Shown here: piece by piece, positions 2,860 to 59,900 of the stretch | Numbering within the stretch: the first letter of the stretch is position 1 | Layout: the number at the start of each line of letters is the position of its first letter | Source: Euglena gracilis | Lineage: Eukaryota | NCBI GenBank assembly: GCA_039621445.1 | Contig: CP154954.1 | Location: 20,756,642-20,820,641, forward strand | Direction of reading: 5' to 3' | DNA length: 64,000 nt | Position numbers and translations under genes: made by a program | Notes under the pieces: model-generated | What the model saw: the letters and a program-made list of their open reading frames with translations, nothing else | What the model was told of the DNA's origin: nothing | The model's database searches: none

Positions 2860-5800
2860 CACGCGGCGCTGGCGGCGGAGGAGCTGCAGGCGGTCACCGA
2901 GGCCCTGGCGGGACAGCAGGAGGAGCTGCAGCAGCTGCAGCAGCGGGAGGAGCAGGCCGGGGAGGAGGCCGCGGCGCGCCCGGGACCCCCGCCACAACAC
3001 CGCCGGTAAACCCCCCGCAAAAATTCAAGCCCGGGTGCACAGAGCATAGCGGACCACTGCTTCCGGCGGTGGCGGGGTGCCATTGCCGTCGGAATTGGGT
3101 GCGCATAGACTGGACCAAACCTTCGGCGGCGGCGGGAGGTGCGCTTTTATTTGGACCCAACCCTCGCCCTGTTGCAAGGGGAGGTTCATCATCCAGGGAA
3201 TCAAGTGAGCGTTTGTTTTTTACCAGGGAAGGGGAGGGGGGTCCGACCCCCCCCAAGAGGGAGGGAGGCCAACGGACCACCCCCCTCCGGGCCGGAGGGG
3301 AGGGGTCCGGGACTTCCCCGGGAGCTGAAATTGTTTTCATCCGCGGCGAACAGCTCATGTTTTTCATCGGTTTGGCGGGATCTTCTACATCACAAATGGT
3401 GTTGCCCCTGCCCGCCTGCATCATGCCAACCAAATCGCCACAACGTTTTCTGCTGCCACTGCATTTAATAAATAAATAGACGGTGATCAGGAGGTCCTTA
3501 AGGGACGGGAAAGTTTTTTTTTATTTTCTCAAGGACCGCCCCCCCCCCCCTTTGTGCCAAATGGCCAACCAAGGGCAAGTCCAGGGATCGAACGGGGCCG
3601 GAAACCAAGAAGTCGAGAATCCCATTTTTTTGCATGTTTTGGGCTCCTTCTGGGGGAAGGGTCCAGATCATCGGGCTGTAAGGGAATCCCCACAACCCCA
3701 TGGGTGGTGGGTGGGGGGCCAACCCCCTCACCCCTATCCTGGTGAGCGGGGTCCGACCCCCCCACCCAGACCTTCCTGTGTTTCCAGGGGCGCCGGTTTT
3801 TAGCTGAAATTTTCCTTTTATGGGTGCTGTGGTGCGTGGAAAACTCCTTCGGCGCCTTCGGCACCAAAGGGGTATTTTGACCTAAAAATCGGTGCCCCCA
3901 GAAATGTGGGCCACCCCCCCCCCCCAACCGTTCCTGTGCAGCCCACCCCCCCCCCCCCCCCCTCTCCCCCATCACTGAATACCCTGCGGTCCACCCTCCC
4001 CAGGCCCTGGTACGAGGGGGATGGGTGACGTTTAGGCGGCAGCTCAGGCTGGGCGGAGCCCCGCCCCCACAAGGAGCTGTTCGAGACGGAGCTTGCGACG
4101 TACCAGCAGGAGGCGAAGCTGGCGCTGGAGCAGCGGGAGCAGGCGCTAGAGGCCCTGGCCGCCCTGCAGCGGGCCGGGGACGAGCAGGGGGGCCGCCGCA
4201 GGCGGAGGTGGGGGCAGCCCCGTTGATTTTCTGGGAACATCCACCTCGTTCTGCACATTGTCGTATGCGCTCAAACAGGGTACGGGATTTCTGCTTTGTT
4301 ATGTAATGCCTGTCCTTCCTTGATCACTGGTCCGTTTGTGACTCCTGTGTGATATGTTTTAGGAAAAAGGGGGTACCTACCCCCCCCCCCCGGGAAACTG
4401 TCATGCCCGAGAACCTGTCAGGGTCCCGCCCGGGAAACTGTCAGGGTCCCCGGTACCGGCGAACCTGTCAGGTGACAGTTTCCCGGGGGGGGGGGGTAGG
4501 TAGGAAATGCAACACACAATGCAGCGGTGCGGTAAATGGGAACGAGTTCGTACGGCATCCCCATGCATTGTGTTGACAGCAACCTGTTGTGCCATTTGAA
4601 AGCTTCTGGCTCTCCCCTGACTGCATACACGATCTCGAGTTTGACCCAACCGACAATATCTGCGTGCCAGGACACCCAATGCCTTGCCATTTTGTTTCAT
4701 GGCCGCCCTGCCATTGCCGCCCAGGCAGAGCTGCAGGCGGCCGTCCGAGAGCGGGACCTGCTGCGCGCCATCGCCGCTGAGAAGGACGAGTCGTACGACA
4801 AGTTCCGGGTGGCCCAGGACGAGGTCCAGCCCAGCAACCGGCAAAGCCCATATGAGCAGGGTAAGCCAGGGTATGAAGCCGAAGGATGGGATGGTGGTCA
4901 GCGGCAGAGAAGAGGAGAGATGGAAAAAATCTCTGCCAGGTGGGCTTTTCTGTGGTCTTTCCTTGACCAGTGGTTGCAGCAGGTGCGTGTGTGCATGCTT
5001 GTTTGTTGTGCTTTGTGGTGGCTGTGTATGTGTGTGTGTGTGTGGGTGTGTGTTGTGTTGTGTTGTGTGTGTGTGTGTGTGTGTGTGTGTGTGTGTGTGT
5101 GTGTGTGTGTGTGTGTGTGTGTGTGTGTGTGTGTGTGCGTGCCGTTCGTGGGTGGGGTGGGTGGGTTGGTGTGTGCATATTGCATTGTGTTGTGCATTCA
5201 TGTGTGTGTGTATGTGTGTGTCAGTGTGTGTGTGTGTGTGTGTGTGTCGCGTGTTTGTGTGTGCATGTGTGTTTGTGGGGGTGTCAGCTGGTGGCCCAGG
5301 TCTCCATGCTGGGTCTGTGCATTCGCCGGGTTGCTGCGGGGAACGCTCCGGCACGCCGCGCGCCGGCACAGCCAGCAGCAGTTCCTGACGGACCAGGACC
5401 TGGAGCAGCTGCGGGACGAACTGCGCGGCGTGCGGGAGGAGCTGCAGCAGCAGAAAGCAGCATTGCGACAGCGGCCGGGGGTTTGGCCAGTTGGCCCCAG
5501 ATTTTGTGATAGCCTTTTGTCTGTTGTTTTGTTGTTTGTCTGTTTGTCTTTTGACTTGTTGTCATCTTGTTTTTTTTGGAATTATTAGTGCGCCAGGTCC
5601 TACAACCACACCTGGTGTTGTAGCAACTGCAACTACTCCTGCTGTTGCAGTGTCACCAGGCAGCCACCTGGCACCTTTCAACGCACACATACACACATAT
5701 GTGCGCACACATGCACGCACAGACACACCTTGCCTCTCCAGCTAGTTAATGTGCGAATGTTTCAAATATTGTATTTATTTGTCTGCCAGAGGAATCCACC

Positions 5801-56900: not shown

Positions 56901-59900
56901 CATGTATGCATCTGTGCATGTGTGTGCGCGCACGCCCGGGCAGGTGTGTGTGTGTGTGTGTGTGTGTGTGTGTGTGTGTGTGTGTGTGTGTGTGTGTTTG
57001 TGTGTGATTTTTTTTTGCCCAAGGGGTTAGTGGTTGGTCTGATGGGTTGGCAGGAATATCCACCCTCAATTGTTGAAAGCGAGACGTCAGCCTCGAAGGG
57101 ACCGCGCAGGTTCCACGCCACGGTTGGGGCTGGAGCCTGACGGCGGGACCCCGCCCCTGCCCGCCGCAGCCCCGGCCGCCGCCGCGGCGGAGGAACACCG
57201 GGCGACAGGTTGGCCCTGCGCTGCGGCAAACCACAAGTGTGGGTGAAGACCATTGGAACATGGAAATGGGTGGAAATGTCTGGCATGCAGTGTGTGCTTC
57301 TTCAGCATGCTTCTGTTGACCCGGATGGAGCTTTGGATGCGGGTATTGTGAAAGATCTGCACATTCTGAATTCCCCTATTCCAGTTTACTCCGGATCCAA
57401 GACGTTTTCCCTGCCCATGAACAGAACCCGAGGGGCGCAACTTTTTTTTGGGAGTTGCCTGTGCATATTTCTGAGTATCGGCATGCCAGGAGGGGGGGGT
57501 GTGATGGTAGATTGGAGGTTTAGGTGTAGGTATGGGTGTGCATTGGTGCCCAGACCTCAGAAGGTTAGCACTGATGGCTGAGCCCCTCCAGGGTTCCCTT
57601 CCGGGTTTTTGTTGTTCACGCTTTGGAGGATGGCTTGATTTCAGCGCTGGAGTCCTGAGGGGCGGTGTGGAGACGCGGGAGTGAGATTGTGTGAGATTTG
57701 AAATCAGTCCCACCCAGCCGAAGGCTGGGTCTGATTTTTTTCCAAGGGGGTTCGGCCGATTTGGGTGGTGGGTGCAGGGCGGTCCGTAAGGGACGGGGTT
57801 TATTTTTTTTTTTTGTTAAGGACCGTCCCCTTAAGGACCGCCCCCCCCCCCAATACACAGAAAGGCCCCTACACCACCGGTGTTTTTCAACACCTGCCAA
57901 GTGCAACGTCCAATCACAGATTGCCACGCAATTTGCCTTTTGGAGCCCCATATTTTCCTCCATATGTATAAACATCTCTTTAGTTTTTTTTGTCTGTCTT
58001 TAAAGGGATGTGTGCAACCAGCAAGCTGCCTAGCGGAGGAATGGAGAAGGAGCGGAAGCAAGCCCTTCGGAAGCCGCCGCTCACAATTACGTTCAATCCG
58101 TCACCGGATTCGGACGACGATTGTGAGCGTTGCACTGGAAAAAAAATTCGTTTTTCCGATTCGTCACTCCTACTGCTTCACCCCTGGTCACAAGTAGGGC
58201 TGCACACTGCGCATGTGTGCAGTGCACGACCATATTAACTTAATTTTCGAAGGCGCAGAGAAAAGACGCCAGCCCTGACGTGATGTGTCCCCCCCCCGAA
58301 TTCTCCATTTGCAAATCACACAAAAACCCAACATGGCCGCTCATTTTGGGCGGGCTGTGTTGGGGCCGCTTCTTGAGAGGAGCCATGCCTTTGAAAGATC
58401 GTGGGCCAAGACTTAGGATTTTTGATAAAGGGGGAGGGGAGGGGTCTAACACATGAGTGTATATCAGCATGTGTATTGCATGCACATGTATTGGATGCAC
58501 TGCAATCTGATTCATTGTGGTATTTGGACATCTCAAAGGTTGAATGACATTTAAGCTGTCTTTCTTTTGTATTTGAGCCTTTTTTGGATGGTTGACCCAG
58601 CCAATACAAGCACTTTTGCAACTACAGATAACTTGGACAACTGTGGATAGCTACGGAAAACTCCAGATAAAACGGATGAGATGAGATGTTATGACTGTTC
58701 AAGTTTTTGGTCAATTCCAGCATCAAACACCTCCAAACAGGGCAGTCCTCAAGGGACGGGAACGTTTTTTTTTCCCTTGAGACCCCCCCCCCTTTGTCCA
58801 AAGCCAAGGACCGGATTGGAGCTTGAACAGGGTCGAAAATCAAAAATCCGAAAAACACATTATTGACGTTTTGGGTGGATGGGCGATGATCCAAGGATGA
58901 GAGGAATCAATTCTTTCCCCAATGTCGACCTGGTCTTGCCAAAAAAGTCGCCAAATTTCCTTGCCCATTTTTCCTGTGTATTTTGCATTGAATGTGGGAC
59001 AGCCAAGTTTTTGTTATATTTTCTTTAAGGACAGCCCTGGGTGGTGGGTCGGTCGAACCCCCTGTGGGGAGGAGGGTCCCCACGGGGGCCCTCTCTTGAG
59101 GATGGGTTTTCAGAAGGTTCCTAGACTATCTGGAATAGATGCTGGAAAGTCTCAAGGTCAAATTATTTCATTTTGCCGATTCGGGAAAGAACTTTTTTTT
59201 TTGGAAGGTTGCACCCTCCAGGTAGTGGATAGCACACGAACCACCCGAAAATGTCATTTTTAAGGTATTTTTTTCAAAGGTAATTTATCTACCCAATACC
59301 GACTGCCCTAAAGGTAGGACAGGTATACCACCGGTGTCGAAGGGTGTGTCTTTTATCCCACGCCTTGCCCCGCTCGTCGGCAGGGTTCGCAGCCAGTCAT
59401 CAAACTCCGAAGTGCGAGGTGTTGCCCTGTACAACGTGTGCTATCTTCCAGACGGAGAGGTTTACCCTGAAACTGAAATTTTTGCTGGGGGGACGGGTTG
59501 CTATTTGAAGAAAGCTCATCGTCTTTTATTTGGCCGTTGCTTGCATTTTAATTGGATCTCTTTTGGGTGTCCGATAATACTAGACATTACAGATTTGTGC
59601 ATTGTTCGAACCATGAGCTTCATGATGTGGGATGTCATGTTTTTTTTCCACCCCCAAATTTTTATCCAAGAGTGTGTTTTGTTTGCTCTTTTCCTTTTTT
59701 TTTGGTCTCCAAGGGTTTTTTGGTTCTCTAAGGGTTGGTTCCTCGCACGTGCTGATGTTTCACTCAAACTCGATGATGGCATGTGCATCCTCCGAGTTTG
59801 CTGTGTAAATTCTTGCTGCAAAATGGATTATGGGTCGATCGCTGTGTTGCGTCGTTTGTGGAAGTGACACGCCTTCTTCACAGTGGCTTCTTCAAGCCGG

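Follow-up and report, generated by a model that had tools for sequence, protein, structure and literature searches.

The nonconventional introns of euglenids have been described as N3-CAG...CTG-N5 before a purine, bounded by a terminal helix and lacking GT-AG borders (Milanowski et al., 2014, 2016; Nomura et al., 2025, PMC12501133). In the splicing experiments of Nomura et al. (2025, PMC12501133) a 5′ spacer of exactly 3 nt was required, and the 3′ spacer was 5 nt long or, as a tolerated variant, 6 nt. A purine was favoured at the start of the downstream exon and no base was needed on the donor side. Five wholly artificial 50-bp inserts carrying CAG/CTG, 12-bp complementary arms, 3/5 spacers and the purine were spliced from an exon, and function was abolished by loss of arm complementarity (PMC12501133). 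Here we describe a stretch of 64,000 nt from Euglena gracilis (assembly GCA_039621445.1, contig CP154954.1, positions 20,756,642–20,820,641 of the forward strand), referred to as the window, in which putative introns of this type lie together with terminal inverted repeat (TIR) elements that have mostly CAG...CTG ends and duplicate 8 bp of their target. The length of this target-site duplication (TSD) equals the sum of the two intron spacers, and we evaluate the possibility that the introns are born from such elements.

An origin of euglenid introns from transposable elements of the miniature inverted-repeat kind (MITEs) was proposed in 2013 (PMC3935182) and has been repeated since, as an initial annotation of the window had noted. 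In a review from 2024, CAG/CTG is termed ‘TIR’ and the repeats at the junctions are called ‘TSD-like’ (PMC11282704), and it was suggested in 2025 that the machinery may mitigate harmful insertions (PMC12501133). In general terms the MITE-origin hypothesis (PMC3935182, PMC11282704) is the same idea as the one we favour. However, the passages on MITE origin in these two papers contain neither the 8-bp duplication, nor hAT-type elements, nor the equation of 3+5 with the duplication length. The terms ‘hAT’ and ‘TSD’ occur zero times in PMC12501133 and PMC11170887, and ‘hAT’ occurs zero times in the text of PMC11282704. We found no explicit statement in the literature that combines the 8-bp duplication, hAT-like elements and 3+5 = TSD, although it could appear in figures, in supplements or in further papers such as Guminska et al. 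(2021, J Mol Biol).

We read 15 putative introns on the + strand at the exact coordinates given in the initial annotation (Table 1) and used the published Euglena code, N3-CDG...CH’G-N5/R (R, purine; the slash marks the junction), as a yardstick. The layout of 3 nt, stem and 5 nt is found in all 15 introns, and the first base of the downstream exon is a purine in every case. CAG at +4 to +6 is combined with CTG at -8 to -6 in 12/15, and 13/15 satisfy the code; the two that do not are 39695–40218 (CAG/GTG) and 53138–53712 (CTG/CGG). The uninterrupted stems range from 2 to 10 pairs. Judged by eye from the translations, the frame stays open, and is mostly coiled-coil-like, after removal of the intron in at least 13/15, with 39695–40218 being doubtful. 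These motif counts are partly circular, because the borders had been picked by an earlier reader using the same motif. The observation on intron geometry made in the initial annotation is confirmed. The window as a whole is G+C-rich and full of microsatellites. Its + strand frames are rich in Gln, Leu, Glu and Ala and coiled-coil-like, and the stretches that interrupt them have no GT-AG borders. Compared with published euglenid nonconventional introns the window introns themselves are no different; what the window adds is co-resident transposons that fit the code.

All eight TIR elements listed in the initial annotation proved to be real: each can be paired with a second end and is flanked by a repeat of 8 bp. 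The TSD is identical at 8/8 positions in five elements and at 7/8 in the other three (Table 1). Five elements have CAG...CTG at both ends, and the remaining three have one degenerate end each (CCG, CAA, CCG). Each of the five with intact ends carries the full published splicing code in one orientation. For a register test we collected 1040 CAG...CTG pairs whose arms matched at 8/10 positions or more and compared the flanks at the exact 8-bp register with those at nine shifted registers. Flank identity of at least 7/8 was seen for six pairs at the 8-bp register and for 0–2 pairs at each shifted register, and identity of 8/8 for three pairs at the 8-bp register and for none at the shifted ones. 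As the excess of matching flanks is confined to the exact 8-bp register, the duplication length is no artefact of looking. Three of the elements (16391, 16883 and 51879) form one family of ~280–300 bp that starts with CAGGGTTTTTTTT, and subterminal G+C-rich palindromes are common to several elements. Two further candidates were rejected. The pair 13367–14515 (flanks 7/8) would enclose an exon and is probably due to chance, since shifted registers also give 0–2 such pairs, and the flanks of 57775–59039 match at 10/11 positions in a GGTGG-rich context and do not make a clean 8-bp TSD.

The copy abundance of two elements was followed with contigs of a DNA run (X1) placed on 39558–46659, where 95,460 contig pieces fell on 7.1 kb. 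Summed contig depth, which is not the same as copy number, was 0.66–2.2 million over the MITE at 39790–40165, compared with ~100–190 in the unique flanks, and 0.1–0.74 million over the element at 42225–42954. In addition, 18 and 23 contigs from other copies leave the window sequence at 40165/40166, which is the CTG end of the MITE at 39790–40165. Both elements are therefore members of very high-copy families, and the boundary of the former falls where its TSD predicts. A further very high-copy region is present at 43824–45482 (summed depth ~0.14–1.7 million in the same run). RNA reads of three runs pile up at 44298–44534 with a depth of 12–64 per strand class, mostly from other copies. In the same three RNA runs no joints were found in 39558–46659, where RNA depth is only ~0–2 over the single-copy parts.

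The arithmetic put forward in the initial annotation is correct: the spacers are fixed in the published experiments (PMC12501133), and the window elements make 8-bp duplications. With spacers of 3 + 5 nt and a TSD of 8 bp, both cuts would fall after position 5 of the duplication, and removal of an exonic copy would therefore restore the pre-insertion mRNA. We consider this deduction sound and, given the published splicing experiments, mechanistically sufficient. The scenario that we favour runs as follows. Coiled-coil genes would be interrupted by nonconventional introns, and a probably non-spliceosomal machinery would recognise the terminal helix, in which CAG is paired with CTG, and cut 3 nt upstream of it and 5 nt downstream of it, before a purine. 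Non-autonomous hAT-like DNA transposons with CAG...CTG (YARNG) ends, present in very high copy, would duplicate 8 bp of their target. Because 3+5=8, an exonic copy with a purine at duplication position 6 would already fit the splicing code, and the original mRNA would be regained once the element and one of the two duplication copies are removed. New nonconventional introns would be born from such insertions, and older ones, including all in the window, would have lost the duplication and the family likeness. We infer that MITE copies may be spliced and that natural introns may have arisen from them.

We incline, with modest confidence, to the view that nonconventional introns arise from insertions of CAG...CTG MITEs. 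The strongest support from outside the window is a recently gained nonconventional intron in the gapC gene of E. agilis, an intron whose junctions carry direct repeats of eight nucleotides (Milanowski et al., 2016, PMC4770533). More tentatively, nonconventional splicing could be an RNA-level excision system that corresponds, nucleotide by nucleotide, to a single class of DNA transposon, with ongoing intron gain being MITE transposition. If so, any exonic CAG...CTG insertion that has an 8-bp duplication with a purine as its sixth base would be a precise intron from birth, and in the excised circular intron RNA the two element ends would be joined by a single rebuilt duplication.

Several observations weigh against an origin of the introns from such elements. 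We compared the 8 nt before the helix with the 8 nt after it in the 15 introns, own pairs against permuted pairs. Own-pair identity was 50/120 (0.417), compared with 0.409 for permuted pairs (p = 0.46), so that the excess over control anticipated in the initial annotation is not seen in the window. The contiguous junction repeat had a mean length of 2.0 nt vs. 1.66 nt (p = 0.16), and flank identity of at least 6/8 was found in 2/15 own pairs and 12/210 cross pairs. A self-BLAST of the window did not reveal the anticipated intron families sharing MITE TIRs either: for the 15 introns it gave no match to a second intron or to a complete MITE, and the only matches are nested fragments. Intron 8997–9431 was considered as a whole MITE copy and rejected, as the part it has in common with 27265–27619 is internal and stops short of both intron ends. 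The intron helices are G+C-rich (CAGG[GC]...), whereas most MITE arms are T-rich past CAGGG. None of the eight MITEs, nor the candidate 57775–59039, has a convincing exon location, and the few stop-free spans are G+C-rich and non-coding-looking. No transposase family of Pfam was detected among 10 open reading frames (ORFs) of the window. Outside the window, the 3′ spacer tolerates 6 nt, and the machinery is therefore not strictly an ‘8’ device, and the gapC repeats were read by their authors as a product of double-strand-break repair (PMC4770533). The negative results from the window have little power, because n = 15 and the introns may be old.

The initial annotation had also explained the pyrimidine-purine step (Y/R) at both intron junctions as positions 5 and 6 of the TSD. 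Another point against the proposed origin is that Y/R is present at these positions in only 3/8 MITE duplications, and these elements therefore have no such target-site preference. If the model is right, Y/R at introns would reflect selection for spliceability rather than target choice. Cross-pair identity was 0.41 at register 8, 0.45 at register 5 and 0.36 at register 11, which is the 3-nt periodicity of G+C-rich sequence, and 14/15 introns are “slidable”, compared with 161/210 cross pairs. The two junctions thus resemble each other through a common consensus, roughly ...Y/GGC-CAG and CTG-NNNNY/RNC, and the resemblance is also present at registers 5 and 11.

The same results are those favouring an alternative in which the match of intron and transposon is fortuitous. 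Here the 3/5 spacing would be the ruler of an RNA endonuclease-ligase on the helix, ordinary hAT-like elements would pile up in introns and spacers, and introns would arise otherwise, for example by double-strand-break repair or by reinsertion of circular intron RNA. Flank identity without excess, the lack of any intron that is a MITE copy, the non-exonic position of all MITEs with clear duplications, and the position-specific consensus that accounts for the similarity of the two junctions are in line with it, as is the explanation preferred by the authors who described the eight-nucleotide repeat (PMC4770533). However, it requires three independent matches, namely the CAG/CTG trinucleotides, the pairing of the arms and a spacer sum equal to the TSD length, and the repeats of the only young intron on record are exactly eight nucleotides long (PMC4770533). 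On balance we find a fortuitous match unlikely.

Causation could also run in the opposite direction. The splicing code would then be the older of the two, and only transposon families that happen to fit it would be harmless in genes, hence the huge expansion of families with CAG...CTG ends and 8-bp TSDs. Insertions would still become introns, and the machinery would not have evolved as a defence. The extreme abundance of CAG...CTG families agrees with this, and the published code asks nothing beyond what such elements carry (PMC12501133). Diplonemids, a sister group, also have helix-bounded noncanonical introns (PMC12621601), which suggests that the machinery is old. Against it, the MITEs of the window sit in introns and spacers, where spliceability confers no advantage, and nothing in the window addresses the direction of causation; we regard this order of events as rather improbable. 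It is very improbable that part of the intron list reflects pattern-seeking with borders fitted to motif and frame: CAG and CTG make up 1.8% and 1.9% of positions and are commoner in Gln/Leu-rich coiled-coil genes, in DNA this rich in G+C long stretches without stop codons are frequent, 39695–40218 and 53138–53712 are off code and 25778–26291 has a stem of only 3 pairs, but stems of at least 5 pairs at the 3/5 register are found in 10/15, the downstream purine in 15/15, and the coiled-coil frames run on across most junctions.

The transposons in the favoured scenario were compared with known superfamilies. The hallmarks of hAT elements are 8-bp TSDs, YARNG ends and TIRs such as CAGGGG... (PMC3014272). 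The window elements resemble them in the 8-bp TSD (8/8), short TIRs, no coding capacity and high copy number, and YARNG is present at both ends of five elements, at one end of one and at neither end of two. They differ in that the hAT target pattern nTnnnnAn (PMC3014272, Table 1) is not followed by the window TSDs, which have T at position 2 in 2/8, A at position 7 in 3/8, and both in 1/8. As the comparison is based on the 8-bp TSD and the YARNG ends and no transposase was found, ‘hAT’ expresses no more than a resemblance; these sequences can fairly be described as ‘hAT-like’, with superfamily membership being unproven. Merlin elements of E. gracilis also have 8-bp TSDs, and all their TIRs begin with 5′-GG (PMC8101967). 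Genus and TSD length are therefore shared with the window elements, but none of the eight starts with 5′-GG. P-type elements combine an 8-bp TSD with CANRG ends. A search with an 18-nt end pattern gave 17 metagenome loci, and a BLAST of the elements matched two, over 20 nt each, which is chance level.

Introners offer a second comparison. According to Huff et al. in 2016, introners are reportedly DNA transposons that create spliceosomal introns, with the TSD as part of the splice site. As in the system proposed here, the element brings some of the signals and the duplication the rest, and splicing takes out the element together with one duplication. Here, by contrast, the cutter would be helix-measuring and apparently non-spliceosomal, and both cuts would lie within the duplications. 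Introners are characterised by multi-copy intron families. The 64-kb window did not yield any such family, and a recognisable TSD at the two junctions is not seen in its 15 introns (p = 0.46, low power). Introners are also treated in the review cited above (PMC11282704).

Table 1. Putative nonconventional introns and TIR elements of the window (window coordinates; stem lengths in base pairs).
Position	Strand	Feature	Remarks
4182–4715	+	Putative nonconventional intron, GAG-CAG...CTG-CCATT	Code met; stem 5; frame restored; 131-nt palindromic repeat at 4373–4503
4829–5341	+	Putative nonconventional intron, CAG...CTG	Stem 8; carries (TG)n run
5473–5829	+	Putative nonconventional intron, CGG...CCG variant	Splicing of CGG-CCG demonstrated in PMC12501133
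6824–7070	+	Putative nonconventional intron, CAG...CTG	Stem 9
8997–9431	+	Putative nonconventional intron, CAG...CTG	Flank identity 6/8; nested transposable element fragment ~9089–9365
11448–11849	+	Putative nonconventional intron, CAGGGCGGC...GCCGCCCTG	Stem 10
12003–12101	+	Putative nonconventional intron, 99 nt	Stem 9
13657–14843	+	Putative nonconventional intron	Repeat copy inside at 14379–14678
16391–16673		MITE, 283 bp, CAGGGTTTTTTTTT... family	TSD ttgggggg/ttgggggc (7/8); related copies found
16883–17158		MITE, 276 bp, same family as 16391 element	Right end degenerate (CCG); TSD gccccgtt (8/8)
17520–17734	+	Putative nonconventional intron	3/5 register, frame reading
19619–20122	+	Putative nonconventional intron	Flank identity 6/8
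20843–22591		Non-autonomous TIR element, 1749 bp	TIR 14/14; TSD ggagggcc (8/8); sits centrally in older palindromic element
23463–23878	+	Putative nonconventional intron	3/5 register, frame reading
25778–26291	+	Putative nonconventional intron	Stem only 3
29111–29885	+	Putative nonconventional intron	3/5 register, frame reading
39695–40218	+	Doubtful intron, CAG/GTG	Code unmet; MITE 39790–40165 inside; no RNA joint at depth ~1–2
39790–40165		MITE, 376 bp, very high copy	TSD gcccgccc (8/8)
42225–42954		MITE, 730 bp, CAAGG.../CAGGG...	TSD cgcttggg (8/8); downstream of GT at 42123
51024–51615		TIR element, 592 bp	TSD cttaacag (8/8)
51879–52178		MITE, 300 bp, CAGGGTTTTTTTTT family	TSD cagtagag/cagtggag (7/8)
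53138–53712	+	Possible intron, CTG/CGG ends	Published code unmet; MITE-like fragments at 53215–53441
56149–56464		MITE, 316 bp	Degenerate left end (CCG); TSD gaatcaaa/gcatcaaa (7/8)

Besides the features in Table 1, a probable extra nonconventional intron, absent from the earlier list, was read by eye at ~20623–23270 (GGG-CAGGGCCCGG...CCGGGCTG-CCCAC). It spans nested transposons and has coiled-coil frames on either side. The outer of these transposons is a palindromic element at 20795–23091, whose arms match at 47/48 positions (20795–20842 vs. 23045–23091) and which has (TA)n on its flanks. The element at 20843–22591 is inserted at its centre, within a long non-coding stretch, and contains a 140-aa ORF that gave no Pfam match. 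The exon at 41955–42122 begins with ATG and has a weak partial match to the FHA domain (E 0.0017, under the Pfam cut-off). The GT that follows it at 42123 can be read as opening a conventional intron in an FHA-like gene, and this intron would host the MITE at 42225–42954. The exon at 6568–6822 gave no match when compared with longer proteins. The window was also scanned for Rfam families and tRNAs, with no matches.

Other repeats were also noted. The 8-mer CAGGGCGG (11451, 29114, 57775) and its complement CCGCCCTG (4703, 11837, 27612) form the helix of several introns and also end two TIR-type repeats (57775–59039 and a copy ending at 27619), which may only be chance in G+C-rich sequence. The 131-nt palindromic repeat inside intron 4182–4715 has a second copy, 96% identical, at 15799–15930. 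A repeat family of ~320 bp (6012–6336, 7822–8127 and 14379–14678; 71–74% alike) has two copies in putative introns, and its ends carry subterminal direct repeats (TTGTCTAAGC...CCCC) instead of CAG...CTG. A 3.4-kb satellite of the pentamer ATACT (~684 copies) occupies 36124–39557, with MITE-like fragments near 37880–38005. Finally, 1–2512 and 32729–35399 are a segmental duplication with 87–89% identity. The difference of ~180 nt vs. ~20 nt between its two copies was considered as a TIR/TSD insertion and was not clean.

Taken together, the transposon-to-intron hypothesis raised in the initial annotation is partly supported. It is real and testable, has been partly anticipated, and is supported from outside the window by the published sufficiency of the code and the young E. 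agilis intron. Within the window the geometry fits, and there is no direct link from element to intron that would prove it.

Where euglenid nonconventional introns come from, and why they are cut with so odd a 3/5 geometry, has puzzled the field since the 1990s. A geometry that mirrors the 8-bp duplication made by a class of resident transposons would explain the CAG/CTG helix, the asymmetric spacers and the similar Y/R junctions, as well as the frequent junction repeats of “slidable” introns and the rapid gain of introns at the strain level. The 8-bp geometry makes the question directly testable, and the published E. agilis set holds 649,158 exon-intron junctions. If true, the euglenid introns would represent an introner-like system that works without the spliceosome, the first of its kind.

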